A DNA stretch of 64,000 nucleotides from an uncultured Acidobacteriota bacterium (GCA_963843575.1 CAWJKZ010000011.1:96001-160000), one strand, 5' to 3'; positions 4,792 to 46,315 are shown, counted from the stretch's first letter. The notes: generated by a model not told the origin, from the letters alone. Numbers and translations are program-made.

Positions 4792-5436
4792 ATGGCAGAC
4801 GGAACTTTCAACGGCGAGCAGGTGCGCCAAGCGGTTGTGCGGGTCTCGGAGCGCCTGGGCGAACTCGGGGATCTGCTCAACCGGCTCGACGCGGCGGTCG
4901 GCGACGGCGATCTGGGGATCACCGCGGTCAAGGGCGGGGCGGCTCTCCGCGAGTACGCCGCGGCGCAGCCTCCGGTTTCCGATCTCGGAGCCTTCTTGAG
5001 CGGGGCGGGCATGGCTTTCAACCGGGCGGCGTCGAGCACCTTCGGAGCCCTGGCCGCCACGGCGCTCATGCGGGCCGGCAGGGAACTCAAGGGGCTCGAC
5101 GCACTCGATGCCGCATCCCTTGCACGGGCCCTGACCGCCGCCGATGCCGGCGTCCAGGAGCGAGGCAAGGCCCGCCCGGGCGACAAGACCCTGGTCGACG
5201 CCCTGCACCCCGCCGCCGAGGCGTTCGCCGCCGCCATTGCCTCGGGCCACGATGTCAGAACGGCAGCCACGTCGATGCTGGAGGCCGCCCGGGCCGGCCG
5301 CGACGCCATCGTCCCGCAACAGAGCCGTATCGGCCGCGCATCCTGGGTCGGCGAGCGCACCCGCAACCAGCCCGACCCCGGCGCCGTCCTGATCGTCCAC
5401 CTCCTCGAAGCAATAACAGGGGACGGACCCGGGTAA
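4792..5436 (+). CDS. dhaL: Dihydroxyacetone kinase family, L subunit
   Basis: LDAAVGDGDLG, GKARPGDKTLVDAL, GRASWVGER...DPGA. No dhaM nearby. Confidence 0.9.
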   Translation: MADGTFNGEQVRQAVVRVSERLGELGDLLNRLDAAVGDGDLGITAVKGGAALREYAAAQPPVSDLGAFLSGAGMAFNRAASSTFGALAATALMRAGRELKGLDALDAASLARALTAADAGVQERGKARPGDKTLVDALHPAAEAFAAAIASGHDVRTAATSMLEAARAGRDAIVPQQSRIGRASWVGERTRNQPDPGAVLIVHLLEAITGDGPG

Positions 5437-5522
5437 CGCTATTTGTTATAAATGGTTATGGCAGTTTTCGACCACAAAATGGCCCTTATTTCGTGTTTTT
5501 GACGCCTTTTTCTTGAAATAGT
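5419..5522 (+). repeat. Family A fixed-geometry element (copy 1), overlapping the dhaL 3' end
   Basis: GGGGACGGACC 5419-5429, 55 nt, CTTAT 5485-5489, 28 nt, ATAGT 5518-5522. Confidence 0.85.
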
Positions 5523-5730
5523 GCATGCGGCGGCAGGCAGTCGTTGCGTCGCTCGCGGTGAACCTCTAGATTACTTTCTGTTACGCCGAACGCCGCACAA
5601 AGGAACTTGGAGATTCTGCGAGTGCTTTGAGCCTTGGTGGCGAGCTTTAGACTGACCTCCAGGGCTCAAAGTATTCACAGAACCTCGAAGAGCCCTGAAG
5701 AACAACGTGCGAGGTGTTGGGGGAGATCGT

Positions 5731-6594
5731 ATGCCGGATATGAAGAAGCGGATGGCCGAGAAGAAGCCCCTGGTCGGGGTGGGTGCCCGCGACGCGCTCG
5801 AGGCGCGATTAATCGAGCGGGCGGGATTTGATTTTGTCTGGTCGAGTGGTTTTGCGATTTCCGCGGCCTACGGCGTGCCCGACGCGAGCCTGATCACGAT
5901 GAGTCAGCTGGTCGAGTCCGCCCGCGCCATGGCCGAGGTGATCGACATCCCGATCCTGGCCGATTGCGACACCGGCTTTGGCAACGCCATAAACGTCATC
6001 TACGCGGTCCGGAAATTCGAGGATGCGGGCGTTGCGGCCATCTGCATGGAGGACAAGAAGTTCCCCAAGGACACCAGCTTGCTGCCGGGGGGCAGGCAGG
6101 AACTGGTCTCCGTAGAGGAGTTCGCCGGCAAGATCGCGGCGGCGGTGGATACGCGCAGGAGCCGCGATCTCGTGGTCGTCGCCCGCACCGAGGCGCTCAT
6201 CGCCGGCTGGGGGCAGGAGGAGGCGCTCGAGCGTGCGCGTCGCTACGAGGAGGCCGGGGCGGACTGCATCCTGGTTCATTCCAAGTCGAAGACCCCGGAT
6301 GAAGTTCTCGAATTCGTCTCCAGGTGGGACGGGAAAGTGCCGGTGGTGCTCATCCCCACGAACTATCCCAGCCTTACCGAGTCGGAGGTGTGCCGGCTGG
6401 GGAAGGTGGGGATGGTGATTTACGCGAACCAGATGCTTCGCGCCGCCATAACCGCCCAGGAGGCTCTGCTCGCCGAAATCAGGAAGACCGGCGGCATCCA
6501 CACGGTCAACGCCTCCATCGTGCCGGTCGCGCGCGTGTTCGAACTGCAAAACGTCGCCGGCATGAAAGAGAACGAGAAGAAATACCTGCGGTGA
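5731..6594 (+). CDS. palA: Phosphonopyruvate hydrolase (PEP mutase/isocitrate lyase superfamily)
   Basis: DCDTGFGNAINV and loop EDKKFPKDTSL...GRQELV..EEFAGKIAAA. The DTS form matches phosphonopyruvate hydrolase rather than the PEP mutase EDKxxxxxNS signature. Confidence 0.82.
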   Translation: MPDMKKRMAEKKPLVGVGARDALEARLIERAGFDFVWSSGFAISAAYGVPDASLITMSQLVESARAMAEVIDIPILADCDTGFGNAINVIYAVRKFEDAGVAAICMEDKKFPKDTSLLPGGRQELVSVEEFAGKIAAAVDTRRSRDLVVVARTEALIAGWGQEEALERARRYEEAGADCILVHSKSKTPDEVLEFVSRWDGKVPVVLIPTNYPSLTESEVCRLGKVGMVIYANQMLRAAITAQEALLAEIRKTGGIHTVNASIVPVARVFELQNVAGMKENEKKYLR

Positions 6595-6645
6595 TTCGGG
6601 CGGCGGAACCGATGTGCCAGTTTTTGTGAGCCAGGAGTTTGAACG

Positions 6646-8879: not shown

Positions 8880-8904
8880 CGCTTGCCCGATGTCTCCGAC
8901 TCGA

Positions 8905-9015: not shown

Positions 9016-9070
9016 TTGTGTTTTTTGGCCTATGATGCCGAAGTAAAACGAGCGTCGCGGGACAATCGCC

Positions 9071-26585: not shown

Positions 26586-26623
26586 ATCCTGCAGAATCGT
26601 CGACCTTGGGCCGGCGGGAAGCG

Positions 26624-27503: not shown

Positions 27504-27521
27504 CCGGCGGCCTCCCTCACC

Positions 27522-28835: not shown

Positions 28836-28872
28836 TTCGGCGCCCCTCCAAAAGCGGCCGACTCTGCTCAAT

Positions 28873-29119
28873 CAAGTGGGTCCGGGCTTCAGCCCGGACG
28901 TTTTTTAATCTGATTTATGTGGCGACGGGCGCACGTTATAGCGACCGCAAACAGCGTCCGGGCTGAAGAGGCTGTTCAACGGTTGAACCGCCCGCCCTGC
29001 CCGTAAGACAAGTGGGTCCGGGCTTCAGCCCGGACGTTTTTTGATCTGACTTATGCGGCGACGGGCGCACGCTATAGCGACCGCAAACAGCGTCCGGGCT
29101 GAAGCCCGGACCCACTTGT
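28873..29119. repeat. Two tandem family C REPIN-like elements (first truncated at 28968)
   Basis: CAAGTGGGTCCGGGCTTCAGCCCGGAC...GTCCGGGCTGAAG(CCCGGACCCACTTG) at 28873 and 29009, with near-identical spacers. Confidence 0.9.
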
Positions 29120-29136
29120 ATCTTGTCCTCTTCCAG

Positions 29137-30081: not shown

Positions 30082-30139
30082 GAAGCACCTCCAGTGATAT
30101 GTCCTCCACCGCCCCGGACCCGAAGACTGCAAAGCCTCC

Positions 30140-32257: not shown

Positions 32258-32311
32258 CGCGTCCTCCCGCGGCCCCCATCATAATGCCGGAGTCAAGCGC
32301 CGGCGGTCTTT

Positions 32312-32347
32312 GATCTGCGTTGATCCGCGTCCATCCGCGTCCGAAAA
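32312..32347. repeat. Family B half-element
   Basis: ATCTGCGTTGATCCGCGTCCATCCGCGTCCGAAAA. Confidence 0.75.
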
Positions 32348-32388
32348 CGTCATCGTATTCATGTAATTGCTGGTGTAAGGTGGTTACG

Positions 32389-34122
32389 ATGAGCTGGTCC
32401 GCCTCTCCACCCAGGGGTTTTCTGTTTCTGGTGCTTTTGCTGCTGCCTTGCTGCTTCGCCTTGACGCAGAAAAAGGAAAACCAGGAACCCGATTTCAAAG
32501 TCCCGGTCGACGTCATCGTCGTCAGTGCCGTTGTCACGGATCGGGAGGGCGAGCCTGTGCTGGGCCTGGCGGTCGACGATTTCAAAGTATTCGAGGACGG
32601 CAAGCCGCAACCGATCCACACGTTTGCCCTCGAGTCCTACAAAGCGACACAGTCGATCGATCGAAACGGCCAGAAGGCGCCCGTCGCCGCCGACAGGGAA
32701 GAAGCTTCGGAGCCGGCCCAGCCGCGGCTCTTCTCCATCGTGATCGACGACCTTTCCACGGAACGGGAGCTCTACTACCCGATCACCGAGGCGGTGCAGA
32801 AGTTCGTCGACGAGGACCTGCTGCCGGGCGACCAGGTTGCGATCCTCTCCGCGTCCGGGCGCATCCAGCATCCTTTCACAACCGACAGGCAGCTGCTCCG
32901 GGCGGAACTCGGGGAACTCAACAAGAAGCTCAACATGAGCTCTGTCACCAGGTCGACCTGTCCCATCCTTACGGATCTGCAGGCGCAGAGGATCGCCACC
33001 GGCCGGGCGGATCCGGACTCGCTTACCGTGGCGAAGGAGGAAGCAAAACGCTGCATGGGCGCGCTCGCCGATGCCGCCACCGACCCGGAAAGCGGCAGCC
33101 AACTGAAGTTGGGTCTGGCCCTGGATTCCTTCGTCCGCGGGGCGGCCGTAGGACAATACTATGAGATGCAGGACCGCAACCGCTCCCTGCTTCTCAACCT
33201 CCGGCAATACGTCCGGTCCCTGAGGCACTTCGAAGCGAGGAAGAACGTCGTCCTTTTCTCGGACGGGTTCCTCTTTGAAGAGCTCACTTACGAACTGCAG
33301 GACGTCGTCGACCAGGCCCTTAGGGCCGGGGTCGTCCTCAACACGGTGGATGCCCGCGGCCTTTACGTCGACATGTTCAAAGCGAGCGACAATCTGAGCA
33401 ACGTTCCGTGGGAGCTGCTCATCGCCAAAGACCGGTTGCGCTCGGCCGACACCCGGGAGGCTGCGCAACCCCTCAACATGCTGGCGCACGACACGGGCGG
33501 GATCTTCCACGAAAACAGCAACGACCTGCGCGCCGGGCTGCAGAAGGTCTCGGAGCGGCAGACCCACTTCTACGTCCTGACCTACGCGGCCCCCTCGTCG
33601 AGGGCCGACGGCCGCTACCACAAGATCAAGCTCGAGGTCGCGCGCCCCGGACTGAAGCTCTCGTATCGCCAGGGGTATTACGCCCCGAAGGAGCAGCTGA
33701 CCTTCGAGAAGCGGAGAAAAGAAGACATTCTCGAGGCCCTCCACGCCCCCGGAAACGCCAACGAGATACCGATCCGTACCGGCTATGCATCCTACAAGGT
33801 CGATGATGTGCGTTACGAGGTCGAACTCGTGACCCAGGTCGACATCCGGCGCATGAAGTTCGTCGAGGAGGATTCGAGGCGCCGGAACCTGATCAGCGTC
33901 GTGGTTGTCGCCTTCGATGAATACGATCGCTATGTCGACGGCCTACAGAAGGATGTCACCTTCAACCTCACGCCCTCAGGCTACTCCGAGATCCTCGGCC
34001 GCGGCTTCGCGTCCAAGGTTGTGTTTCGGGTGCCTCCCGGCAGATACAAGATCAAGACCGTCGTTCGGGAAAGCGGGGACAGCAAGATAGGATCGCTGAC
34101 CAAGGGCATCGAGGTCCCGTAG
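32389..34122 (+). CDS. Acidobacterial-type VWA domain protein
   Basis: V.VSAVVTDREG.PV.GL..DDFKVFEDGKPQPI, RKNVVLFSDG, LAHDTGG, YVLTY...DGRYHKIKL...YRQGYYAP. Confidence 0.88.
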   Translation: MSWSASPPRGFLFLVLLLLPCCFALTQKKENQEPDFKVPVDVIVVSAVVTDREGEPVLGLAVDDFKVFEDGKPQPIHTFALESYKATQSIDRNGQKAPVAADREEASEPAQPRLFSIVIDDLSTERELYYPITEAVQKFVDEDLLPGDQVAILSASGRIQHPFTTDRQLLRAELGELNKKLNMSSVTRSTCPILTDLQAQRIATGRADPDSLTVAKEEAKRCMGALADAATDPESGSQLKLGLALDSFVRGAAVGQYYEMQDRNRSLLLNLRQYVRSLRHFEARKNVVLFSDGFLFEELTYELQDVVDQALRAGVVLNTVDARGLYVDMFKASDNLSNVPWELLIAKDRLRSADTREAAQPLNMLAHDTGGIFHENSNDLRAGLQKVSERQTHFYVLTYAAPSSRADGRYHKIKLEVARPGLKLSYRQGYYAPKEQLTFEKRRKEDILEALHAPGNANEIPIRTGYASYKVDDVRYEVELVTQVDIRRMKFVEEDSRRRNLISVVVVAFDEYDRYVDGLQKDVTFNLTPSGYSEILGRGFASKVVFRVPPGRYKIKTVVRESGDSKIGSLTKGIEVP

Positions 34123-34154
34123 GACGAGGCAGTCAGGAGTTGGCAGGAGGTCTT

Positions 34155-36605
34155 ATGTCGAACTCAACAATCCGGTTTTGGTTTGCCCGGCCTTTCTGGT
34201 GTGTGCTGACGGTTCTCGGGGTCGTTCTGTGCTCGTCGTGGACTCCCGGGGCATCCTCGCAGGGCGCACCCGCGCAGTCCGATCGCGTCAGCCTTCGGGT
34301 CGATGTGGAGCTGATCACGGTCGAGGTCATTGTCCTCGACAAAAAGGGACGCCCCATACCGAACCTCAAGCAGGAGGATTTCCAGCTCTTCGAGGACGGA
34401 AAGCGGCAGGAGATCGTCACCTTCGCCGAAATCTCCGACGAGCAGAACCGGGAGGTTCCCACCAGCCTCGCGGACCTCGACGAGGGGGGGCCAAACCGGG
34501 GCAAGGTGGTGCTGATTCTCTTCGACGACAGCCACATCACCAACGCGCAGCTCTATAACTCGAGGGAATCGGCCGAGAAGTACGTGAAAGAACAGATGCG
34601 GCCGAGGGACCTGTTCGCCGTCGCTTCTTACGGCATGTCCCTGAAGCTACTACAGAACTTCACGCACGACGCCGCCAAGGTGACGGAGGCCATTCGTCGG
34701 CCGACCACCTCCTTCGCCAACCAGGCTGCCGAAATGCGGGGTGGCGGTGCGATGATGCCCGGCCAGGAGTCGATGGGCCGAGGGTCGATGGACCGGGGAT
34801 CCATGAACCGGTCGAGACCCGACGTGTCGAGCCCGGAGATCCGGATGCGGGTCATGTCGTTTTTCCGGGCGCTCAACGTCCTCAGTTCCGCGGTCTCCCC
34901 GGTAAGAGGCCGGAAAGCCGTCATCATCTTCTCCGAGGACTTCTCGGCAAGCTCCGAGATCCAGACCGAGTTGATGAACACGATAAACTCCGCGAAAAAG
35001 GCAAATGTTTCCTTCTACACCGTCGACGTGAGAGGGCTCAATACCGGTCCGTCGGTCGGTATTCCCGACCAACGCGGCCGGTCCGGCGCCGACGCGTTGC
35101 GGACCGCGTTCTCCCCGGCGCGCTCCATCTTTAGTCGGCTCGGGTCCGGCATGGTCCTGCCGGGTGCGGGAACCGGGAGCCTCGCGGCATTCTCGTTCGG
35201 CCAGCAGGGAGGCGGCCAGACCGGAGGATCGGGCGGGTCCGGAGGGTCTGGCGGGTCCGGTGGATCTGGCGGGTCCGGTGGATCGGGGGGCTCCGGAGGC
35301 TCCGGGACGGGCGGGAGCGGCAGCGGCGGCACAACCCCTGGCGGGGGGTCCACGGGAGCGAATCCGGGCGGAAACGCCGGGAACAATCCCGGTACCAACA
35401 CGAACCCCGTGTCGCCCAACTTCAACCCGAACAATGGCGGCCGGGACTTCAATCGGGAGCAGCAGGACTTCGCCCGATTCTCGCAGCAGACCATCGACAA
35501 CATGTTGAGGAGCCTGGCGGGCCAGACCGGCGGGGTGGCGATATACAACACCAGCGATTTCAACGGGCGGCTCAACGAGGTCACCCGGGAGCTGAACAAC
35601 TACTACGTTCTCGGATTTCAGTCGAGCAACCCGAAGCGGGACGGCGCGTTCCGCAAGCTCAAGGTCAAAACCGAGGTGAAAGCGGAAGTGCGGCACCGGG
35701 ACGGTTACGTCGACCCGCGTCCCCTTGACGTGCTCGCCGGGTCCAAAGGGGAAAAGTCGATGCTGAGCGCGATTGCGTCGCCTGCCCTCGCCGTCACGCT
35801 TCCGGTAACATTCAGCGCCGCCTACTTCTATGACTCGCCGGCATTGGCCCGGATACCGGTTACCGCCAGGATCGCCACCTCGGCCCTCGAGCTCAAGAAA
35901 AAGGGAGGGCAGCTCGTGGGCGATCTCAACGTGATGGGCGTCGCCTACGGCGAGGACGGCGGCATCTCGGCCCGCTTCAGCGAGACGCTGCACGTAGCCA
36001 TAGACAAGGACAACGAGCCCGCCTTCCGTCAGAGACCCCTCGATTACCGAAACTACTTCAAGCTGCGGCCGGGAAAGTACCAGCTCAAGATCGCGACCGC
36101 GGACGAGAAGGGTAAGGTCGGTTCGGCGGAGCAGGCGCTCGTCGTCCCACCCTCGAACCCGGGCGAATTGGCGGCGAGCAGCCTGGTGCTTGTGCAGCAG
36201 GTCGCGCAACTTCCGGCACTGATCCAGGATCTGCAGGTCAAACTGCTGGATGACAGCGATCCCCTGATCTACAAAGGGGTGCAGATCACCCCCGCGGCGG
36301 AGAGCCAGGTGCCCGTGGGGAGTCCCATCAACATCGTCTTCAAGCTCTACAACCTGAGCGACAACGCGCAGGAACGGAAGCTGACGGCCGAGGCCCGCCT
36401 GACCGATGAGAAGGGCTCAATCCACACCCTGCCGCCGATACCTCTGGAACCTTACCTGTATCCGACCGGGAAAACCGAGGCCATGGTCGGCCTCCGCCTG
36501 ACCTTCGCGGAGGCGCTTGCCGGAACATACAAACTGGAGATCGCGACTTCAGAGGGCACGTCCAGCCGCTCCATCTCCCTCCACACCACCCTCCTGTACA
36601 AATAG
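34155..36605 (+). CDS. Acidobacterial-type VWA domain protein with Gly/Ser-rich insertion
   Basis: Paralogue of the upstream gene (DFQLFEDGKRQEI, GRKAVIIFSED, LAGQTGG, YYVLGF); GGS repeat tract at about 35210-35350. Confidence 0.88.
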   Translation: MSNSTIRFWFARPFWCVLTVLGVVLCSSWTPGASSQGAPAQSDRVSLRVDVELITVEVIVLDKKGRPIPNLKQEDFQLFEDGKRQEIVTFAEISDEQNREVPTSLADLDEGGPNRGKVVLILFDDSHITNAQLYNSRESAEKYVKEQMRPRDLFAVASYGMSLKLLQNFTHDAAKVTEAIRRPTTSFANQAAEMRGGGAMMPGQESMGRGSMDRGSMNRSRPDVSSPEIRMRVMSFFRALNVLSSAVSPVRGRKAVIIFSEDFSASSEIQTELMNTINSAKKANVSFYTVDVRGLNTGPSVGIPDQRGRSGADALRTAFSPARSIFSRLGSGMVLPGAGTGSLAAFSFGQQGGGQTGGSGGSGGSGGSGGSGGSGGSGGSGGSGTGGSGSGGTTPGGGSTGANPGGNAGNNPGTNTNPVSPNFNPNNGGRDFNREQQDFARFSQQTIDNMLRSLAGQTGGVAIYNTSDFNGRLNEVTRELNNYYVLGFQSSNPKRDGAFRKLKVKTEVKAEVRHRDGYVDPRPLDVLAGSKGEKSMLSAIASPALAVTLPVTFSAAYFYDSPALARIPVTARIATSALELKKKGGQLVGDLNVMGVAYGEDGGISARFSETLHVAIDKDNEPAFRQRPLDYRNYFKLRPGKYQLKIATADEKGKVGSAEQALVVPPSNPGELAASSLVLVQQVAQLPALIQDLQVKLLDDSDPLIYKGVQITPAAESQVPVGSPINIVFKLYNLSDNAQERKLTAEARLTDEKGSIHTLPPIPLEPYLYPTGKTEAMVGLRLTFAEALAGTYKLEIATSEGTSSRSISLHTTLLYK

Positions 36606-37021
36606 GGGACGGACCAGGAGAAGCGCTTTATTGTCAATTGTTTATAGATAATTCAGGCTCCAAATTGGCCCTTATTTGAGGTTTTTGGGCCTGTTTTTCT
36701 CAATTAAGCCACCAGGCAGTGGCACCGGCGGTGATTCGTTGCCTTATCTTAAAAAAAGAGGCCCAAAAATCCGAAATAAGGCTCTCTTTTCGCAGGAATA
36801 TTCTCGTAAAGAGTTACAATAGTTAGCTTTGTTTAGGTCCGTCCCCTTTTTGAGATTTTCTGGGGTGTTTTTTGTCAATTAAGGTGCTGGGATTTGGCGA
36901 AGGTCGGTGACGTGGTGCTTATTTCAAGAAAATGAGGCCGAAAATTCAAAATAAGGCACTATTTTGGCCCAAAAAAAGTCGTAAGCTATTGAAAGCTATA
37001 TGTTTGCTTTGGTCCGTCCCC
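36605..37021. repeat. Cluster of family A elements: inverted pair 36605-36846, then a truncated + copy and a - copy ending at 37021
   Basis: GGGGACGGACC at 36605, GGTCCGTCCCC at 36836 and 37011, each 55 nt from a CTTAT-N28-(A/T)TAAG box; strongly AT-rich island. Confidence 0.9.
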
Positions 37022-37759
37022 ATGGCGTTGGGGCAGCAGGCGGATCAGGGCAGTTTTGGGTCTAAGTTTTTCGATCAGCTGCAGGCCATTTTCGGCCGGT
37101 TCCAGAATTCCGAACTCGACCGGGTCTTCGCACAGTCCAGGCCGATTCAGTGCTCCGAACTCGTCGCAGGCAAGGGAGAGTGGCGCCCGGTTGCCTTCTT
37201 CAATGAAAACCGCAAACTGGGGGACTGGTGCAAGGAGAGCCTGGAGGAAGTGAAAGCCGACCTGGCCGTGTACACCTTCAAGGGGGAGTGCAGCGGGGAG
37301 CAGGGGACCGTGCAACTGAGCACGGAGTTCCCGACCACCGCAGGAATTGAGGAATACAACCAGCAGAGAATCGACCTCGGCAAGGTCGACGTCACCGTTA
37401 ACGACCCGGTCCCGGTCGTTTTCAACTCCAGGACATCAACCTACACGTTCAATCTCCCCTACCTCTTTAAGTCCGGCCAAGAGGGGAGCATGAATCTCTA
37501 CAGCTTCGCTGCGCCGGATAGAAACGCGGCCTATGCCAGAGAGGTGACAAGCCGGTGGGAATGCAAGGCAGTCTCCTCGAGCGACGTGACCTATCGATTT
37601 CTGATCTGCCGGGCCAACACGGTCCCGCGCAGCACTATCCGGAAGAACGAACGGTGGGAGCCATCCTTCGGGGCATCCGCCTATTTCATCCTCTCCGACG
37701 GCACGGAGGCTCAGACGAGCGTGAAACTGTCGTTTGAAGACGCCGACACCCCGAAATGA
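36932..37759 (+). CDS. Hypothetical exported protein; N-terminus overlaps a family A element
   Basis: 275-aa ORF with normal composition after 37022; several Cys; no family recognised. Confidence 0.65.
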   Translation: MRPKIQNKALFWPKKSRKLLKAICLLWSVPMALGQQADQGSFGSKFFDQLQAIFGRFQNSELDRVFAQSRPIQCSELVAGKGEWRPVAFFNENRKLGDWCKESLEEVKADLAVYTFKGECSGEQGTVQLSTEFPTTAGIEEYNQQRIDLGKVDVTVNDPVPVVFNSRTSTYTFNLPYLFKSGQEGSMNLYSFAAPDRNAAYAREVTSRWECKAVSSSDVTYRFLICRANTVPRSTIRKNERWEPSFGASAYFILSDGTEAQTSVKLSFEDADTPK

Positions 37760-37858
37760 AGTAATCCTCGCATCACCCTGGCCGAAAAAAAACGCAAGAG
37801 CCTTGCCTGCGCGCGTCTCTCTACTGAAACAGCTGATCCCTGAAACAGGAGGTAGAAA

Positions 37859-38644
37859 ATGAGAGTCGCCCTGATCCTCGGAATGTCTCTGTTGACGATT
37901 GGCTATGTGGCCGCGCACGGCCCTCAGCCCGGGGTGGAGGTCCTGGTCGATGGTAACCCGGTGCCGAATTATTTCCACCGGGGCACAACCTACCTGGAAG
38001 CCGCAAAAGGAAAGGAATACGCGATACGCATCACGAATCCGATCGGAACCCGGGTCGCCGTGGCCCTCTCGGTGGACGGATTGAACACGATCGATGCGCG
38101 TCACACCGAGGCCCGGCTGGGCCGCAAGTGGGTCCTGGCGCCTTACGAATCCATCGTTATCAGCGGGTGGCAGACAAACGCAAAGCAGGCCAGGCGTTTC
38201 TTCTTCACGAACGAGGAGCGGTCCTACGGCGCGTGGCTGGGTCAGACGGAGGATCTCGGGGTCATCAGCGCGGCCTTTTTCCGTGAAAGAACCCAGCGGT
38301 TCTATGCCCAGGATGGTTCCCTCTCGGCGCCGGAAGAACCGGCGCGGAAGGATTCCGGGACCGCCGCCCCCGCGCGGGCCAAACAGAACGAGTCCGGCGT
38401 TGCCGCACCGGCGGACGAGGCCGGTTACGCCGCTACCGGGATCGGGCAACGCGTGGACCATGAGGTCCGGCAGGTCCACATGGACCTCGAGGACAAGCCC
38501 TTTGCCCTGGTCAATCTCCGCTACGAGTTCAGGCCTGCTCTGGTCAGGCTCGGCGTTGTTCCGCCGCCGAGCATCGATGATCCGCTGGCTCGTCGTGAAA
38601 GGGCCAAAGGATTTCGCGGGACCGGCTTCTGTCCTGAACCGTAA
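37859..38644 (+). CDS. Conserved hypothetical secreted protein
   Basis: RBS AGGAGG, signal peptide, RVAVALSVDGLNTID, ISGWQ, LGVISAAFFRE. Confidence 0.78.
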   Translation: MRVALILGMSLLTIGYVAAHGPQPGVEVLVDGNPVPNYFHRGTTYLEAAKGKEYAIRITNPIGTRVAVALSVDGLNTIDARHTEARLGRKWVLAPYESIVISGWQTNAKQARRFFFTNEERSYGAWLGQTEDLGVISAAFFRERTQRFYAQDGSLSAPEEPARKDSGTAAPARAKQNESGVAAPADEAGYAATGIGQRVDHEVRQVHMDLEDKPFALVNLRYEFRPALVRLGVVPPPSIDDPLARRERAKGFRGTGFCPEP

Positions 38645-38710
38645 TTGGTCGTTTCCGGGCGGCTTCTCCCGAATCCGGGCCTGAGATCGACGGCTAGATG
38701 CTGGACGCGT

Positions 38711-39661
38711 CTACGGCCCTCTATCTTCTCGCCCTCTGGTTCCGGTTTCGAGGATGGCTCCTCGGCCCTGGAACGCGCAGCCCAGCAGGGGGGCGTCCTC
38801 GCCGAGAGTGCTGCGGACGATGCGCACGCCCGAGCTGACGGAGTGAAACGAGTAGCGGGGCAGGATGCGGCGGGCCGGCTCGAGCAGCAGGTCGCCGGCC
38901 TTCGCCACGCTTCCGCCGACGACGTAGAGGTCGATGTTGAGGATCATCGCCATGGTCGCGACGGCCAGGCCCAGCGCTTCCCCGGCTTCCCGCAGCACCT
39001 GCCGGGCGCGCTCGTCGCCTTCCCGTGCCAGCTGCGTGATGTGTTCGCCCGACAACGCCCGGCCGGTTTCCCGGTAGCGCCGCTCCAGTCCCGGCCCGCC
39101 CAGGTACGTCTCAACGCAGCCCCGGGAACCGCAGGGGCAGGGTGCGCCGGAGCGATCGAGCGTGATGTGGCCGACTTCCCCGGCGAGGTCCCGCACCCCG
39201 CGAAAGACCTGCCCATCGACCACGATGGCCGCGCCGACGCCGGTCCCCGCGACGATGTAGACCAGCGCGGGAGCGCCGTGCCCGGCCCCGTAGTAGAATT
39301 CCCCCAGGGCCGCCGATTTTGCGTCGTGGTCGAGGCTGACGGGCAGGCGGAGGCGGTCGGCCAGCATCTGGCGCAGCGGGGTGTTGTGCAGCCCCTGGAG
39401 TTCGTGGGGTTCCAGCACCGTGCCCGCGGCGTGATCGACGGGCCCGGGCGCGCATATGCCGAGCGCGCTGACCCGCTCGCCGCCGGGAAGTTCCGTCTCG
39501 AGCTCCGCCACGCAGAGGGCGATCCGTTCAACCACGGACTCCGCGCCCAGGTGCGCGTCGGTGGAGAGGCGCCGCCGCGCCACGATGCGGTTTTCCGGAT
39601 CGATCAGCCCGAGCGCAGTCTTGGTGCGCCCCAGGTCGACGCCGACGACCCAGCTGCTCAT
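38711..39661 (-). CDS. ROK family sugar kinase
   Basis: GVDLGRTK, DHDAKSAALGE, GTGVG, GEVGH, CPCGSRGCVE. Confidence 0.9.
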   Translation of the reverse strand: MSSWVVGVDLGRTKTALGLIDPENRIVARRRLSTDAHLGAESVVERIALCVAELETELPGGERVSALGICAPGPVDHAAGTVLEPHELQGLHNTPLRQMLADRLRLPVSLDHDAKSAALGEFYYGAGHGAPALVYIVAGTGVGAAIVVDGQVFRGVRDLAGEVGHITLDRSGAPCPCGSRGCVETYLGGPGLERRYRETGRALSGEHITQLAREGDERARQVLREAGEALGLAVATMAMILNIDLYVVGGSVAKAGDLLLEPARRILPRYSFHSVSSGVRIVRSTLGEDAPLLGCAFQGRGAILETGTRGREDRGP

Positions 39662-39688
39662 AGAGTTCCCCATCCCCGGCCGGCAGCG

Positions 39689-40099
39689 TCAGCGCGCGAA
39701 GGCGTCGGCGCCGAGCCGGGCGAGGACCATGTCCTCCCTCTCGGGGAGCCCGCTCACCCCGACGGCGCCGATCACCTGGCCCTCGAAAACGATCGGGACG
39801 CCGCCGCCCCATGCGGTGTAGCGCAGGTCGCCGTAGTTGGTCATCGGGTACCTGTCCGCGCGCCACGTGTCGCCGATTGCCGCCGTCTCCTTCTGTTCGC
39901 GCGCGGCCGTGAACGCCTTGTTGATCGCGACCGTGATCGACGGCAGGCGGCACCCGTCGGTGCGCAGGAACGCGAGCAGTTCGCCCTGGGCGTCGGCCAC
40001 GGCGATCGCCGCGCCCTTGCCGGCCCGCTCGAGCTCGTCCCGGATGGCCTCGACGATGCGCTGCGCGTCGCTGTGGGAAAGATGATTGCGCTGGTACAT
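39689..40099 (-). CDS. GlcG/HbpS family heme-binding protein
   Basis: IAVAD..G.LLAFLR.DG, AINKAFTA, GGGVPI...GQVIGAVGVSG....D. Confidence 0.88.
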   Translation of the reverse strand: MYQRNHLSHSDAQRIVEAIRDELERAGKGAAIAVADAQGELLAFLRTDGCRLPSITVAINKAFTAAREQKETAAIGDTWRADRYPMTNYGDLRYTAWGGGVPIVFEGQVIGAVGVSGLPEREDMVLARLGADAFAR

Positions 40100-40178
40100 G
40101 CTCACCCCCTCGGTTGACTTGCCTTGCGGATCCGCCTGCGGCCCCATGGCAGGGCTTTTCCGGGGAAGAACGACCCGC

Positions 40179-41328
40179 TCAGGCGCCTCGCACCTCCGCG
40201 ACCCGCACCCAGCGCCGCTCGCCGGAGGAACGCTGGGCGGCCTCCATGATCTCCTGCACCCGCAGCCCGTCCAGAAACCCGGGGGACGCGGGCCCGTCTT
40301 CGGCGACGGCCTTCAGAGAACGAATGTTGCGCCTCGACGAACGTACCGACGAATCCCGGCGCCATGGTCCAGTCGGGGACCTTCTGGCCCGCGTAGCGCC
40401 CGACGGTCTGCACCTTGCGGAAGCCGCTCAAGCCGCCCAGCGGCTGGTCGGGGTCGCGCGTGTCGAAAACGTGCAGCCAGCTCGGCTCGTCCGCCCTGAA
40501 GCGCAGCGCCCCCTTTTCGCCGTAGATCTCGACCGCGAGGTCGTTCGTGGCGCCGGTCCCCATGCGCGACACCTCCACGCTCCCGAGCGCGCCGCTCGCC
40601 ATCCTCAGCTGCAGGATCGCCAGGTCGTCCACGTCCACCTCGCCGACGTCGTGTGCGCCCGCCTGCACCGGCCGCTGCTTGATCAGCGTCTCCATCGTCG
40701 CCAGCACCGCGTCGAAATCGCCGAGCAGGCAGTACAGGAGGTCGAGCACGTGCGAACCGAGGTCGAACAGCGCCCCGCCGCCGGCGCCTTCCTTGCGCAG
40801 CCGCCAGGAGAGCGGCTTGTCGGGCTTTATGTAACTCGAACGGTAGAAGCACGCCCGAAACGAAAACACGCGGCCAAGGAAGCCCTCGGAGACGAGCTGC
40901 CGGGCGCGGGTGATCGCCGGGAAGAAACGGAAGTTGAAGCCGAGCTGCGCCTTCACCCCGGCCTGTTCCACGGCGCGGACGATCTCGCGGCCCTCGGCGA
41001 CGGTCAGGGCGAGCGGCTTCTCGCAGTAGATGTGCTTGCCCGCCGCGGCCGCGGCGGCGATCGCCTCCGCGTGCAGGGCGTTCGGCAGGCAGATGTCGAC
41101 GACGTCGACATCGTTGCGGGCGAGCAGGTCGCGGTAGTCGGCGGCCCCGACGGGGCAGCCGGCTTCGCGCGCGGCCAGTGCGGCGGCCTCGGGGCGGCGC
41201 CTGGACACGCCGACGAGCCTCACGAGGTCGGAAGGGAACCCGTAGTGAAAGGGGATGGCGCGGTAGGCGAGCGCGTGCACGCGGCCCACACCGCCGTAGC
41301 CCACGATCGCGACGCCGAGCTTCCTCAT
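40179..41328 (-). CDS. Gfo/Idh/MocA oxidoreductase (frameshift near 40315)
   Basis: GYGGVG, KHIYCEKP, GGGALFDLGSHVLD. The canonical tail FLKAV...PGFLDGLRVQEIMEAAQRS is in another frame ending at 40179. Confidence 0.85.
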
Positions 41329-42137
41329 GGCCGGTTCCCCTGGGGCTTGAGTCCGCGCTCGTCGCGCCAGCGCTCGCTCGCCTCGTCCATTACCCCCCGG
41401 AGCTTTTTCACGGCGGCCTGGATGTCCCCCGTGCCGGGGACGAGCTTTCCTTCCGGACCCTTCAGCAGCGGCGACGAGAACTCGCCGACGGTCATGCCCG
41501 CCTCGATGAATTCGGCGACGTTGCCCGCGTTGAGGCCGCCGTCTTCCATCAACTCGATCCGGCCCTCCATGCCGGCTGCCGCGATCATTTCGTGGAGCCG
41601 GCGGACGCTGGCGAGGACGATCGGGTCGATCGTGTGGGGGCTTTTCCCCGCCTGCGGCTTTACCCAGAACGGGGCGCGGCTTTCGTACTCGATGATGTCC
41701 ACGTAGGGATGGATGTACTGCTCGAAAAAAACCACCGGGCAACCCTGCCAGGCCCAAACCCCGACCTTCAGCTCGAGCTTCTCCTTGACGTACGTGATGT
41801 TCTGCATCAGGGTCTCGCCGGTGGTCTCGATCGGCAGGCTGATCAGGTCGACCCCCAGGTCGGCGAGCTGATTGAAGACGTCGAAGCTGGGACGGACCAT
41901 CTGGAGCTGCGCCTCGATCTCGAGCGACGTGCTCTTGCGCACCCCTTCGAGGATGTCGAAACCGCCGCGCGGCATGCCGAAGTCCATGTACTTGCCGTCC
42001 CGGACCTCGACGTGGAGCCAGTCGACGCCGGCCTCCTCCAGGTCGCGCACCTGCGCCCCCAGCACCGAGTAATCGGCCCAGAACAGCCCCGCCGCGATCT
42101 TCGCCCGCCGCCCAATCTTCCCTATCGTGTCGCTCAC
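41325..42137 (-). CDS. Ribulose-phosphate 3-epimerase family protein (divergent)
   Basis: AGVDWLHVEVRDGKY, IEAQLQM, MEDGGLN. Confidence 0.78.
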   Translation of the reverse strand: MSDTIGKIGRRAKIAAGLFWADYSVLGAQVRDLEEAGVDWLHVEVRDGKYMDFGMPRGGFDILEGVRKSTSLEIEAQLQMVRPSFDVFNQLADLGVDLISLPIETTGETLMQNITYVKEKLELKVGVWAWQGCPVVFFEQYIHPYVDIIEYESRAPFWVKPQAGKSPHTIDPIVLASVRRLHEMIAAAGMEGRIELMEDGGLNAGNVAEFIEAGMTVGEFSSPLLKGPEGKLVPGTGDIQAAVKKLRGVMDEASERWRDERGLKPQGNRP

Positions 42138-42144
42138 GCCGCCA

Positions 42145-42173
42145 ATTACAGCCCCCCCCTCCCCCCCTGTCAA
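42145..42173 (-). promoter_or_regulatory. Sigma70 promoter of the epimerase operon, probably leaderless
   Basis: Minus strand TTGACA (42173-42168), 17 nt, TGTAAT (42150-42145); the GTG start at 42137 lies at the expected +1. Confidence 0.65.
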
Positions 42174-42181
42174 GCAGTAAT

Positions 42182-42285
42182 GGGGACGGACCAGGACAAC
42201 CCACGCTTTTGCAGTGAATTGTAGGGAATTTCGACCCTAAAAACGGGCTTATTTCACGTTTTTGGGCCTGTTTTCTGCAAATAAG
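42182..42285 (+). repeat. Family A element
   Basis: GGGGACGGACC 42182, 55 nt, CTTAT 42248, 28 nt, ATAAG 42281. Confidence 0.9.
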
Positions 42286-42636
42286 CGGTAAGACGCGTTC
42301 CGCCTCGGACGGGGCAGATTCGGGAGGGTCGGTGCAGATGTCGCGCGGGACGAACGACCGGATCGCGAAGCCGCGTCAGCCTGACAGGAGTAAGATGAAT
42401 CCCGGTACCTGTCTACTCTATCCAATCGGCCAAGGCCATCCGGTCTTCGGATTGCAGCTCACCAGGACAGCGTTGGAGCCGCTGCTTCTGAAGACACTCA
42501 GCGCGCACCGGAATCCAGGCGATGGCGCGGCTTTGGCGGGCCGCACGGCGCAGGTATGCGGAGCGCCTCACACAAAATGGGAAATTGCCGGAGTGGTAAT
42601 ATTCCCGGAGATCTGCAGCACAGATGGAGGTCTGGT

Positions 42637-43695
42637 ATGGGTGGAACATATCGCATGTCGATTGCCGTTGCCGTCTTGATCCTCACGATAGCGCCTTCGA
42701 CCAGGTCACGAACCGCGGAAGCTCCGTATCACTTCCTTGCCAAGATCGACGTCGGCGGCGAAGGGGGGTGGGATTACGCTTCGGTTGATGCGGCCGCGCG
42801 CAGGCTCTATGTCACGCATGCGACCAAGGTCGTTGTGATCGACCTCGACAGTCACAGGGTGATCGGCGAGGTGGTCGACACTCCCGGGGTCCACGGTTTT
42901 GCGCTGGCGCCGGACCTCGGGCTGGGGTTTGCGAGCAACGGCCGGGAGAACAAGGCCAGCATCGTGGATCTAAAGACGCTCGCGACCCGGATGAAGGTCG
43001 ACACGGGGGCGAACCCCGACGCGATTCTGTACGTCCCCGGCGTGCAGGAGGTGTACACGTTCAACGGGACCGGCAAGTCCGCGACGGTATTCGAGGCAAA
43101 ATCGGGCCAAGTGATCGCCACGATTCCTCTGCCGGGGAAGCCTGAATTTGCCCAGTTGGACGTGAAGGCCGGGCGGATCTACAACAACATCGAGGACACG
43201 AACGAAGTCGTGGCGATCGACATCCGAAAGCACGAGGTGGTCGCCAGATGGCCGATCGCGCCGGGCGAAGGCGCATCCGGCATGGCCATCGACCTCGCCA
43301 ATCACCGGCTGTTCCTCGGGGCCGACAAGCTCATGGTCGTGCTGGACAGCACATCGGGCAGGGTCGTCACCACGGTTCCCATCGGTCCCGGCGTCGATGC
43401 CAATGCCTATGACCCCGCGACCAGGCTGGTCTTCGCCTCCTGCGGCGGCGACGGCACCGTGACCGTCGCTCGCGAGGACGGCCCGGACAAGCTGACGGTC
43501 GTCCAGGTGCTTCAGACCGCGAGGGGCGCCCGCACCATGACGCTCGACCCCAAAACGCACAATATCTACCTTGCGGCGGTCGACTACGAAGCTCCCGCCG
43601 CGCCGGCGGCCCAGCCCGCTCCAGGTCAGAGGCCCCGGCCGAAGCCGGTGCCGAATTCCTTCAAGGTCCTCGTCTATGGAACCGAGGCGCAGTAA
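42637..43695 (+). CDS. YncE/YVTN family beta-propeller protein
   Basis: GGEGGWDY, RRLYVTH, TPGVHG, NPDAILY, GARTMTLDPKTH; signal peptide. Confidence 0.88.
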   Translation: MGGTYRMSIAVAVLILTIAPSTRSRTAEAPYHFLAKIDVGGEGGWDYASVDAAARRLYVTHATKVVVIDLDSHRVIGEVVDTPGVHGFALAPDLGLGFASNGRENKASIVDLKTLATRMKVDTGANPDAILYVPGVQEVYTFNGTGKSATVFEAKSGQVIATIPLPGKPEFAQLDVKAGRIYNNIEDTNEVVAIDIRKHEVVARWPIAPGEGASGMAIDLANHRLFLGADKLMVVLDSTSGRVVTTVPIGPGVDANAYDPATRLVFASCGGDGTVTVAREDGPDKLTVVQVLQTARGARTMTLDPKTHNIYLAAVDYEAPAAPAAQPAPGQRPRPKPVPNSFKVLVYGTEAQ

Positions 43696-43751
43696 GAGAG
43701 ACCGGGGGAAGTACTCGAAGCGGAGTCCCTGCCTTTCTTGAAGAGGTCAGG

Positions 43752-44768
43752 ATGAACGGATTCCAGCGAATCCGGGCTGCACTGCGCGGTGAGGCGCCGG
43801 ACTGCACGCCTGTGATGCTGCACAGCTTCATGCTTGCCGCCGCGGAATCCGGCATTCCGATGTGGCGCTATCGACGGGACCCGGCGGAGATCGTCCGCTG
43901 CCTGATCGAATTTGTGGAGCGGTACGGCACCGACGGGGTATTGCTCGACATCGACACCGCAACGCTCGCGGGCGCACTCGGGATCCCGGTCGAGTACCCC
44001 GACGACCAGCCGGCTGTCTGCCGGCGGCCGAAACTGGCCGATGTGTCCGAGGTCGACCGGTTGGAACCGGTCGATGTCCTCGCCTTTCCGGGCGTGCAGG
44101 TGTGGCTCGAGGCGGCGAGGCTGTTGAGCCGCTACTTTCGGGGCGAAATATACGTGCGCGCGAACTGCGACCAGTGCCCGTTCTCTCTTGCCTCCATGAT
44201 GTGCGGCTCGGAACCCTGGATGCTTGCGTTGGTCGACCCGTCCAGGCACGTGCACGTGCGCCGCCTGCTCGCGTACTGCACTCGGGCAACGGTCCAGTTT
44301 GTCCGGCTCATGTCCCAAACGGGTGCCGACATGCTCTCCAACGGCGATAGCCCCGCGGGCCCCGAACTGATCTCTCCGCGATTGTACCGGGAATTCGCGC
44401 TGCCGTACGAAACGCAGGTCGCAGCCGCGGCCCACGAGACGGGGCTGCCGTACGCCCTTCACATATGCGGATCGACCGAGCAGATCCTGCAGGACATGGT
44501 CTCGACCGGCGCCGAGGCGCTCGAACTGGATTACCGGACCGACTGCCGCATGGCCTGCTCCCTTCTGAAGGGAAGGGCTGCCTTCATCGGGAACATCGAC
44601 CCCACGGGCGTCCTGGCCTTGGGTGATCCGCGGCTGGTCGAGGCGAAGACGCGCGAGCTGGTTGCTGCCTTCGAAGGCAATCCCCGCTTCATCCTGAACG
44701 CGGGCTGCGCAATCCCCCCCTCGACTCCACCCGCCAATGTGCGGGCCCTGATCCGGGGACGGACCTAG
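43752..44768 (+). CDS. Uroporphyrinogen decarboxylase/MtaA-CmuA methyltransferase family protein
   Basis: ISPRLYREFALPY, LHICG, GNIDP, FILNAGCAIP..TP..N. Confidence 0.85.
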   Translation: MNGFQRIRAALRGEAPDCTPVMLHSFMLAAAESGIPMWRYRRDPAEIVRCLIEFVERYGTDGVLLDIDTATLAGALGIPVEYPDDQPAVCRRPKLADVSEVDRLEPVDVLAFPGVQVWLEAARLLSRYFRGEIYVRANCDQCPFSLASMMCGSEPWMLALVDPSRHVHVRRLLAYCTRATVQFVRLMSQTGADMLSNGDSPAGPELISPRLYREFALPYETQVAAAAHETGLPYALHICGSTEQILQDMVSTGAEALELDYRTDCRMACSLLKGRAAFIGNIDPTGVLALGDPRLVEAKTRELVAAFEGNPRFILNAGCAIPPSTPPANVRALIRGRT

Positions 44769-44775
44769 AAAAGAA

Positions 44776-44846
44776 GGACGCAGATGAACGCGGAGAAACG
44801 CGGATCAGCACTGACGATTCGCTCTGCCAGCGTTTGTCCGCGTCCC
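44776..44846. repeat. Family B repeat (degenerate hairpin), preceded by a bare family A core at 44755-44765
   Basis: GGACGCAGATGAACGCGGAGAAACGCGGAT...GTCCGCGTCC. Confidence 0.7.
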
Positions 44847-44923
44847 ACTACGCTTGCGGTTGATTGGGAACGTCATCAGGCTCTAGTATGAGCCGGGATC
44901 AAACACGTATTGAGGAGGGGCGT

Positions 44924-46174
44924 ATGACGGGCCTTGATTTGACCGGTGAACACCTCCAGGTGACGCGGCGCCATTTTTTCCAGCTTGGGGGCGCAGCAGT
45001 GGCAGCCTGGAACGTCTCCGGGCTCGCCGCCGGCCAAGCCGCCATTGATCCTCAACTGGAGGAGGCCGTTGCCAAACTGCAGTACCTGACTCCGCCCGAC
45101 CGGGTTGGCACCATCCTGGACAAAGGGAAGGCAGGCGTGGCGAAACTTCCGCCGGAGAGGCTTCATGAAATCGGGCTGGTCCCGGAAACCTGGTCACTTG
45201 ACGTCGTCGGCGACCCCACGAGCAACTGCGTCGTGGAGCAGCCCCTCTCGCGTGCACTCGGCAACGCCCTGGACTGGAAGGGCCTGATGAGGTTGGCCGA
45301 TAAGCATGCGACCCGCTTCATGCAGGTCTGCTCGTGCACAAACGGCGCCGATCCTTTTCACATGAGCCTTTGGGAAGGGGTCCCGCTCCGTGAAGTCATC
45401 TGGCTAGTCCGTCCCAAAGACAATGTCCGACGGGTCTATTATCAAAGCTATCACCCCGAGAACCTGCCCCCGTTTCAAAGCTCTCTGCCGCTGGGTCAGA
45501 TTCTGGAAAACCCGCCAGGGCAGATGCCGGTCATTCTTGCCTACAAGCGGAATGAGCAGGTTATCCCCGCCTCTCATGGCGGCCCCGTTCGGATGATCGT
45601 TCCGGGTGCGTACGGCAGCAAGTGCATTAAATGGGTTCAGCGCGTTGTCCTGACCAACGAATTCAAGGCGAACGATTCAGACGCGGATCTGAACAACGAC
45701 CCGGAAAACGCGCTGAAGACAAGGGCCAGGTTTGTCAATGCTCCGAAGGAGGCCGCGTCCGGAACGCCCTTTGCCTTGACCGGCATGGCGCAGGTCGGCG
45801 TTTCGGGTCTCAGCAAGGTTCAGTTCTGCGTGCATTCTCAGCAGGGCCCATGGCCGGCCGATGACCCGTATCGCGCCAAGGCGGACTGGAAGGACTGCAC
45901 CATCCTGCCGCCCCCCAACAACTGGGGAGGAGGGCTTCCGCAGGGGAAACTGCCCGCCACAGCCCAGACCGATCCGACGACCGGCAAGCCTTTCCAATGG
46001 CCCATGCGGTACGCGATCGTCCACTGGGCGAAATTGGTCGCCGGCCTGGCTCCCGGCACATACGAACTGTGCTGCCGCACGATCGACGATAACGGCATCG
46101 CGCAGCCGATGCCCCGTACGTTACCGAGGACAGGCTTCAACGAGATTCAGCGTGCCTCGCTTGTCGTGAAGTGA
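44924..46174 (+). CDS. Molybdopterin-dependent oxidoreductase (sulfite oxidase family) with Tat signal
   Basis: TRRHFF; WEGVPLR, LAYKRN, HGGPVRMIVPGAYGSKCIKW, YELCCRTID..G..QP. Confidence 0.85.
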   Translation: MTGLDLTGEHLQVTRRHFFQLGGAAVAAWNVSGLAAGQAAIDPQLEEAVAKLQYLTPPDRVGTILDKGKAGVAKLPPERLHEIGLVPETWSLDVVGDPTSNCVVEQPLSRALGNALDWKGLMRLADKHATRFMQVCSCTNGADPFHMSLWEGVPLREVIWLVRPKDNVRRVYYQSYHPENLPPFQSSLPLGQILENPPGQMPVILAYKRNEQVIPASHGGPVRMIVPGAYGSKCIKWVQRVVLTNEFKANDSDADLNNDPENALKTRARFVNAPKEAASGTPFALTGMAQVGVSGLSKVQFCVHSQQGPWPADDPYRAKADWKDCTILPPPNNWGGGLPQGKLPATAQTDPTTGKPFQWPMRYAIVHWAKLVAGLAPGTYELCCRTIDDNGIAQPMPRTLPRTGFNEIQRASLVVK

Positions 46175-46210
46175 TTGAACCCACTGTAAACCGCCCTCCA
46201 GCGCGGTCGT

Positions 46211-46315
46211 GGGGACGGACCACGGCAAGCCATTATCTCACTATCAATTAGCAGATTTCAGGACCAGGAAACAGGCCTTATTTCGTGTTTTTGGGGGCGG
46301 TTTTCTTGAGATAAC
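46211..46315 (+). repeat. Family A element
   Basis: GGGGACGGACC 46211, 55 nt, CTTAT 46277, 29 nt, ATAAC 46311. Confidence 0.85.

Follow-up and report, generated by a model that had tools for sequence, protein, structure and literature searches.

The extragenic element described here, which recurs through a 64,000-nt stretch of an uncultured Acidobacteriota genome (the window; G000:C11:96001-160000 of a 6.68-Mb assembly with 64% G+C), is very probably the non-autonomous left end, ~107 bp long, of a small Y1 (HUH) transposon of the TIRYT or 'TIRtron' type whose enzyme gene lies on another contig. An earlier note on the window had reported seven copies that share little sequence and a single geometry, a head (GGGGACGGACC), 55 nt, CTTAT, 28 nt and ATAAG, and had offered three options for their nature: a recombination site, the end of a non-autonomous element or a chromosome-organising site. 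Among these we favour the element end, on the evidence of an enzyme gene that is itself flanked by the element. The family belongs to a kind of repeat that is already known and has been little studied, the orphan ends of a TIRYT-type Y1 transposon.

A Y1 transposase gene flanked by the element

The absence of a cognate enzyme from the window, remarked on in the earlier note, was confirmed by a whole-genome Pfam search, which placed no Y1 transposase there. The same note had proposed looking for a Y1 or RAYT-type (tyrosine transposase associated with a repetitive extragenic palindrome, REP) gene flanked by the motif, and this search was positive, on another contig and in relatives across phyla. 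Two genes matched Pfam Y1_Tnp in the whole genome, on contigs C21 and C27. The C27 gene (G000:C27:64006-64746; locus L045:1501-2241) is preceded by a full element copy at C27:63852(+), 46 nt before its ATG, and its 3' end is overlapped by an inverted head followed by ~57 nt of element at C27:64772(-); the GGGG ends of both point outward. The second Y1_Tnp match (G000:C21:301573-301866, minus strand; 77.6 bits) carries an internal TAG and was rejected as a partner, as neither the element nor the commoner hairpin repeat of this genome (GTCCGGGC/GCCCGGAC, described below) adjoins the gene.

The C27 product scored 40.3 bits against Y1_Tnp (cut-off 23), and its best NCBIfam match was the REP-associated tyrosine transposase family (NF047646), below the cut-off (42.6 vs 80 bits). 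The HUH histidines (H60 and H62) and Y120, the tyrosine of YIDLNMV, are invariant in 65 relatives. A profile search of the PDB returned as best match 4er8, the Escherichia coli TnpA-REP (E 2.6e-5), above the ISDra2 and IS608 TnpA proteins, and a single-sequence PDB search gave no relevant match. An AlphaFold model of the orthologue from G013 (predicted local distance difference test score, pLDDT, 89.2) led Foldseek to 4er8_A at the top (E 2.5e-5; TM 0.68 on the target), with ISDra2 and IS608 next; an earlier model built from 9 sequences was discarded (pLDDT 53). The orthologues also share a conserved C-terminal extension of ~90 aa, in which none of the Pfam helix-turn-helix (HTH) families Bac_DnaA_C, HTH_23 and HTH_28 matched at E <= 1 among 9 orthologues.

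The association of enzyme and element extends to other genera. Enzyme orthologues (38-48% identity) were found in 8 of 40 relatives (genome G034 is included in this tally and in that of head enrichment below), and 7 of the 8 are flanked by head-like 11-mers, which face outward as inverted copies on both sides in five. The head reads GGGGTCGGACC in four genomes, inverted on both sides of the gene in G027 and G023 (with a slight difference in the right copy of G023) and upstream only in G014 and G022; it is GGGGACGGACC exactly, inverted on both sides, in G015 and G018, and GGGGACTGACG, again inverted on both sides, in G017. No clear head flanks the G013 orthologue, whose contig stops just past the gene. 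In G018 and G015 (loci L048 and L051) two exact GGGGACGGACC heads stand in tandem upstream of the gene, ~47 nt apart. The degenerate head GGGGWCGGACC, counted forward and reverse against its reversed sequence as control, is enriched in G000 (89 vs 18), its same-genus relative G001 (53 vs 17), G006 (60 vs 8), G018 (56 vs 12), G015 (34 vs 15), G024 (35 vs 17) and G013 (29 vs 10), and not in most other relatives. G018 has this enrichment yet no copies of the form head-N55-CTTAT, and a shorter unit may have spread in the genus of G018 and G015.

One scan of genome_contigs returned 555 relatives of the enzyme, from Acidobacteriota, Verrucomicrobiota, Kiritimatiellia, Planctomycetota, Desulfobacterota, Gamma- and Betaproteobacteria, Nitrospirota, Omnitrophota, Aminicenantes and other groups. 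Of the 555, the best 80 included 70 loci with both flanks; 51 of the 70 have as their longest inverted repeat a head of the GGGG[T/A]CGGACC type, located ~115-130 bp before the start. Forty left ends share the head, AA at columns 17-18, TTGA at columns 23-26, CTTAG at ~66 and TnTAAGGA before the ATG, and align as GGGGTCGGACCAnGnCAACnnnTTGAnAT...AAAT...GGnCTTAGA...TTTTTG...AAAA...TnTAAGGA-(about 11 nt)-ATG. Because these cross-phylum ends share one layout, the geometry reported for the window is that of the transposon left end, and the right half-box appears, from the consensus, to coincide with the ribosome-binding site of the transposase. An Aminicenantaceae metagenome-assembled genome (MAG) carries the exact G000 head with CTTATTT at the same offset and has convergent pairs 240-255 bp apart; named records with several full copies were Acidobacteriota MAGs only.

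From these data we propose the following course of events. The GGGGACGGACC head is probably the outermost terminal sequence of the transposon, and the fixed geometry (head, 55 nt, CTTAT, 28 nt, ATAAG) is probably inherited from the transposon end, with the right half-box corresponding to the TnTAAGGA that stands, like a ribosome-binding site, ~11 nt before the transposase ATG. The enzyme would recognise and cut the head, and would have scattered single ends and tail-to-tail doublets over intergenic DNA with no duplication of the target. Cuts made at heads could also cause deletions and insertions next to them, and selection would filter such changes, leaving heads flush against coding starts and stops. 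Finally, A/T tracts phased at 10.5 bp may make the end a bent or wrapped platform for protein binding.

The family in the window and genome-wide

The exact GGGGACGGACC sequence has nine matches in the window and 13 when up to one mismatch is allowed, against 3.6 expected; 13 was reached in 0 of 100 shuffles. Seven of the nine are the copies of the earlier note, whose coordinates and strands we could reproduce. The 55-nt spacer between the head and CTTATTT holds in all seven (7/7), and, with the 28-nt spacer held fixed, four copies have ATAAG as their right half-box, one has ATAGT and one TTAAG; the copy at 46211 has GATAA there and ATAAC at 29 nt, as had been noted. The two exact sites that had been missed lie at 44755(+) and at 61099(+), the latter within a coding region.

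The first copy, a solo element at 5419-5523(+) (nhmmer E 3e-20; profile positions 1-105), reaches with its head over the final codons of the gene at 4792-5436, which encodes a Dak2 domain and has its TAA stop at element columns 16-18; the Pfam Dak2 domain spans residues 35-209 of 214, and the head therefore encodes the last codons of that gene. Copy 2, also solo (26621-26727, minus strand; E 2.2e-15; profile positions 1-107), faces with its head the start of a zinc-ribbon gene (Pfam match) called at 26790. Copies 3 (36605-36712, plus strand; E 1.1e-22) and 4 (36740-36846, minus strand; E 2.1e-18) are the left and right arms of a tail-to-tail doublet, their tails 27 bp apart, and the first G of the copy 3 head is the final base of the TAG stop of an open reading frame (ORF) at 34203-36605. 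Copy 5 (36915-37021, minus strand; E 6.4e-21) stands in tandem with copy 4, the sole tandem pair genome-wide, and an ATG at 37022 directly follows its head. The remaining two are solo: copy 6 (42182-42288, plus strand; E 2.1e-22) has its head 8 nt away from where a gene of the ribulose-phosphate 3-epimerase family (41325-42173, minus strand; Pfam) is called to start, and copy 7 (46211-46317, plus strand; E 1.3e-18) lies with its head 36 nt past the stop of a molybdopterin-oxidoreductase-domain gene (44924-46174; Pfam).

In the whole genome, exact GGGGACGGACC occurs 86 times, and CTTAT follows at offset 66 in 44 of these sites, 65 in six, 67 in three, 64 in two and 69 in one. A profile built from the 44 copies at offset 66 and applied at E <= 1e-3 defined a family of 93 copies genome-wide, 78 of them full length (~107 bp). 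The fixed geometry described for the window is thus the dominant one in the family, but in roughly one of five copies that bear CTTAT the spacing is off by 1-3 nt. The family consensus reads GGGGACGGACC-agg..AA-....ttt..t..cA...a.TTa.....a.ttt...ccc.AAAa.ggg-CCTTATTT-gcg.TTTTtGggccc.TTTTtt..aaaTAagg.

Conservation is distributed very unevenly along this consensus. Of 90 heads, 74 are exact, 15 have one mismatch and 1 has two; outside the head the copies are 52% +- 6% identical, in agreement with the remark that the spacer sequences barely align. Only five pairs of copies exceed 75% identity, and these include a segmental duplication (C16/C24) and an assembly duplicate: the copies at G000:C15:310784-310890 and C20:67123-67229 are identical, lie near contig ends between the same flanking genes (99% protein identity) and are probably one locus assembled twice. 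Besides such segmental or assembly duplicates there are no near-identical copies, and the interiors have diverged though the heads are near-invariant.

Family-wide, the interior keeps AA (columns 17-18) and TTR (columns 38-40), both seen first in the window copies. The A/T content along the columns has a sharp periodicity at 10.5 bp (power 2.52), against powers of at most 0.26 at periods <=9.5 bp and at most 0.15 at >=12 bp. The resemblance to the binding site of integration host factor (IHF) that had been pointed out in two window copies is enriched at one register but confined to a minority of copies: the consensus WATCAANNNNTTR is exact in 5 of 78, and allowing one mismatch brings the total to 18 of 78, where shuffles lead one to expect 3.8; 16 of these 18 matches begin at the same column, 28.

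Other sequences of the window deserve mention beside the family. The 11-mer at 44755-44765(+) is an exact head without the remaining element and was missed by the profile; after it, 44755-44860 holds an unrelated inverted-repeat sequence with GACGCAGATGAACGCGGAGAAACGCGGATCAG and then inverted TCCGCGTCC, whose 12-mers have just 2-9 occurrences genome-wide. A comparable head joined to a different tail lies at G000:C24:316674(-). The genome also has a second, commoner extragenic repeat, a perfect GC-rich hairpin (GTCCGGGC-N4-GCCCGGAC) usually set in AAGTGG...GTCTTTTG, with 265 sites genome-wide that are often paired 75-136 bp apart. Its 20-bp sites in the window are at 8918, 8992, 28880, 29016 and 29092, and it looks like a classical REP.

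Gene boundaries and the weighing of alternatives

The heads lie close to the ends of genes. According to the calls of a rough codon-usage gene finder (5,088 calls; 78% coding), 53 of 88 copies have the GGGG end no more than 20 nt from a coding-sequence boundary, and the median distance is 8 nt. The closeness belongs to the head: for the 41 scored solo copies (those outside tail-to-tail pairs), 23 heads and 4 tails are within 20 nt of a boundary, and the median distances are 8 nt and 207 nt, respectively. The boundaries abutted comprise 24 starts and 34 stops (58 copies with a boundary within 60 nt). Fourteen of the stops are TAG codons that share their last base with the head, as its first G, and in another class the frame GGG GAC GGA CCn nnn TAA reads into the element. 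The 58 head-adjacent proteins are diverse, and no recurrent neighbour gene was found among them. In other phyla, 30 of 109 transposon ends are within 20 nt of a long-ORF boundary, a figure that carries no weight, as the shifted control (112 of 436) was flawed by counting internal start codons as boundaries.

The copies are arranged among themselves in an equally one-sided fashion, with 25 tail-to-tail pairs, no head-to-head pair and 1 tandem, and with 43 copies outside tail-to-tail pairs, two of which make up the tandem. Tail-to-tail pairs have a median tail gap of ~29 bp and a median span of ~242 bp, and their arms are 51% identical outside the head (n=18), against 52% for random pairs. A degenerate partner, sought as a tail-side remnant, was found beside at most 4 of the 43 unpaired copies. 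Direct repeats of at least 3 nt flank 0 of 24 doublets, as in the shuffled control, and no target duplication is expected in HUH/Y1 transposition (IS200/IS605). The same count of 0 of 24 speaks against a miniature inverted-repeat transposable element (MITE) of a DDE-type insertion sequence, which would pair its terminal inverted repeats with a target-site duplication.

Comparison with the same-genus genome G001, whose genes are 80-90% identical to those of G000, gives a view of individual sites. Two doublets are present at orthologous sites in G001, with interiors 65% and 76% identical and heads mostly intact, and the comparison for empty sites suggested in the earlier note was informative as well: the G001 boundaries orthologous to the copies at 42182 and 46211 are without the element. 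At C12:181058(-) two long syntenic blocks (5-kb synteny) join exactly at the outer edge of the head. G001 has at this site an additional 2.5-kb two-gene segment, whose last ORF also runs into the head, and in G000 the neighbouring gene has the head in place of its last six codons and its stop; the simplest reading would be a deletion that started at the head in the G000 lineage. Synteny between the two genomes is poor overall, and coincidences of breakpoints with heads are for that reason not significant in themselves; long flanking synteny is present in this C12 case only. At another orthologous gene pair, a (-) copy in G000 abuts the right-hand gene and a (+) copy in G001 stands directly after the Shine-Dalgarno complement of the left-hand gene, and the rest of the spacer is not homologous. 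A 3.7-kb segment (G000:C12:172280-176025) is missing from an otherwise syntenic G001 region and has edges without the element; not all indels are therefore tied to heads.

Several observations weigh against the account of the copies as orphan transposon ends. The G000 enzyme gene is out of frame over ~40 codons relative to its orthologues; one low-depth contig of a related strain (run X3) has an extra G after L045:1989 that brings the frames back together at one shift point, and the contigs compared, which cover only a minor part of the gene, do not reach the second. G001 carries element copies and yielded no enzyme match in an assembly that is 81% complete. Studied Y1 transposases recognise hairpins, whereas the elements show no hairpin covariation, and the folding of single copies as single-strand DNA is weak (mean z -0.79 and -0.96; top pair probability 0.21). 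The copies show no sign of recent spread, and the heads are far better kept than the interiors, which a purely selfish, decaying family does not predict. The heads GGGGACGG and GGGGTCGG also match only 7 of the 8 positions of the GGGGWSAS motif as given in the available text on the TIRYT class (PMC3733652), position 7 being G and not A. The preservation of the heads, the lack of recent copies and the heads flush with gene ends are left unexplained by a simple selfish-element reading.

This is where an alternative that we hold to be possible, if clearly the less probable, has its appeal: that the copies, of transposon-end origin, have by now become fixed in the host as curved modules that bind protein at gene boundaries and are kept by host-level selection. 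Such modules might insulate, start or stop transcription, organise supercoils or the nucleoid, or act through the 11-mer in the ends of mRNAs. The proposal is compatible with a transposon origin and differs in present function only. It would account for heads exact in 74 of 90 copies beside interiors saturated at 52% identity, for the doublets kept at orthologous G001 sites with interiors 65-76% identical, for the sharp A/T phasing at 10.5 bp, for the enrichment of the IHF-like motif at a single register and for heads that abut coding-sequence starts as well as stops. In some divergent gene pairs the doublet makes up the entire space between the genes (at C12:228900/229140, for instance, the two starts are 11 and 7 nt away from the heads), and any promoter must therefore be inside the doublet. 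However, a consensus scan of 26500-46400 found 2 sigma-70-like promoters vs 2.3 expected and 20 terminator-like sites vs 17.8 expected, and a promoter-like site overlaps just 1 of the 6 copies in this interval. By eye, and as an impression only, the cross-phylum ends carry TTGAnA, ~17 nt and AAAATA directed towards the transposase gene. Moreover, orthologous boundaries in G001 are often without the element, which makes individual copies dispensable.

A bolder version of the transposon reading, which we consider improbable, would have the heads serve as live cutting sites of the single Y1 enzyme and as 'gene-boundary joints', in an integron-like, HUH-driven gain and loss of genes, tolerated by the host or turned to its own use. 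One-ended cutting, repeated at heads, would delete or insert whole neighbouring genes, and the element would supply a new gene end, either a GDGP-type tail with TAA at columns 16-18 or a whole upstream region; the enzyme, or else a nucleoid protein, would be wrapped by the phased A/T tracts.

A structured RNA, such as a small RNA, an untranslated-region element or an attenuator, with the box as its stem and the GC islands as alternative hairpins, is very unlikely. The halves of the box can pair (CTTATTT/AAATAAG), the succession of A-tract, GC and T-tract resembles a terminator by eye, and in transposase-linked left ends the 3' box overlaps a Shine-Dalgarno-like AAGGA; in IS200, a hairpin occludes the ribosome-binding site. 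However, the orientation of the copies relative to genes is mixed, folding z-scores are weak, and no Rfam family matched at the elements. The sole Rfam match in the window was an nhaA-I riboswitch at 58124-58178(+), with 48.3 bits against a gathering score of 37. RNAalifold found no consensus structure on either strand of 77 non-redundant copies, where the pairs with the highest mutual information are not Watson-Crick, and was negative for 40 cross-phylum ends as well. Counts made helix by helix revealed no hairpin covariation, and Watson-Crick pairs between CTTATTT and AAATAAG are no more frequent than column composition predicts. An anchored permutation test, which covered the sequences with both anchors (41 of 78 copies in G000 and, across phyla, 17 of 39 ends), gave no significant excess of pairing beyond CTTA/TAAG (lowest p 0.06). 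A conserved RNA structure is largely refuted by these results. As the box is conserved as sequence at a fixed distance, recognition by a protein is favoured, and the protein-DNA architecture proposed in the earlier note is preferred over RNA structure on the null result for box pairing and on the 10.5-bp A/T phasing.

Scarcely credible is an IHF-assisted site for a tyrosine or serine recombinase (core, bend and dimer box) with inversion or cassette exchange between heads, for which one can cite gene blocks bracketed by inverted heads, the IHF-like motif at a fixed register in 16 of 78 copies and one indel exactly at a head, but the only element-flanked enzyme in G000 and across phyla is the Y1 HUH transposase, and no recombinase gene was seen among the 58 head-adjacent genes (compared by BLAST clustering only, with Pfam applied to window genes only).

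Comparison with known transposon systems

Orphan ends of a Y1 transposon, as we read the copies, have their closest counterpart in the TIRYTs. In the literature searched, the term occurs only in PMC3733652 and PMC6006769. The first of these (Di Nocera et al., 2013, BMC Genomics 14:522; PMC3733652) gave the name TIRYT or TIRtron to RAYT-like genes that have on their flanks long terminal inverted repeats (TIRs), some of which, in the text available, share GGGGWSAS at similar distances from the gene. It describes the TIR families as 'moderately abundant', present as singles, dimers and groups, and includes among the hosts the acidobacterium Koribacter versatilis. The system described here is alike, as far as that text goes, in having a RAYT-like Y1 gene flanked by long inverted repeats and not by REP hairpins, a GGGG-type start at a near-constant distance from the gene and repeats that are also moderately abundant as singles and dimers; its 93 copies and 25 tail-to-tail doublets may be rather many for the class. 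The available text of PMC3733652 does not describe the 10.5-bp A/T phasing, the flush heads, an indel exactly at a head or a whole ~110-bp left-end layout across phyla, nor did we find described in it a family without near-identical copies yet with near-invariant heads. Text matches to the head 11-mers in the literature were chance only. The earlier note had held that variable spacing, or a match to an end already described, would speak against its conserved architecture. Both are found in part, since the spacing varies by 1-3 nt and the element fits the class described, in the portion available, in PMC3733652.

Two later works deal with such enzymes. According to the accessible parts of Quentin et al. 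(2018; PMC6006769), most TIRYTs belong to TnpA-REP subclass 2.1, long Y1 proteins with a C-terminal HTH, no REP nearby and flanking repeats of the form GGGG[AT][CG]A[CG]. Bertels et al. (2017; PMC5581495), again in the parts available, report widely distributed 'Group 1' RAYTs with modestly abundant flanking 16-mers. Compared with subclass 2.1 as outlined there, the enzyme of this study is likewise a long Y1 protein with a conserved C-terminal extension and no REP nearby, but the extension differs in having no Pfam HTH match at E <= 1.

The REP/REPIN-RAYT systems are reportedly the subject of work by Nunvar in 2010. As the available parts of the descriptions have it (Bertels and Rainey, 2011, PMC3116915; structure 4ER8, PMC3479197), the likeness lies in a single-copy Y1 HUH enzyme, nearest here to TnpA-REP, and in a gene flanked by inverted extragenic repeats that are also found in intergenic DNA, form many inverted doublets and persist at orthologous sites. 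In contrast, where a classical REP is an imperfect palindrome of 20-40 bp with a GTAG (or CGTC) tag, the unit here measures 107 bp and has no GTAG tag and no stable GC-rich hairpin, and the arms of a doublet are only 51% identical, which makes a REPIN hairpin impossible. With the IS200/IS605 elements the system shares the Y1 HUH fold, the lack of target duplication and a left end with an inverted box proximal to the Shine-Dalgarno sequence. It differs from them in its true inverted-repeat ends with a terminal 11-mer, which take the place of distinct subterminal hairpins, and in its single-copy enzyme beside many orphan ends.

We found no biochemistry of TIRYT-type Y1 transposases, widespread as they are, in the searched literature, as far as its text was available. 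The genome offers one enzyme gene, 93 orphan ends and an 11-base terminal motif whose conservation reaches, apart from minor variants, from Acidobacteriota to Proteobacteria, and this combination points to the sequence that the enzyme must recognise. Because heads are flush with gene ends and one indel falls exactly at a head, it can be tested whether such ends shape gene boundaries or gene content. This question, and that of why ends are kept though seemingly immobile, apply to REP/RAYT systems as well.

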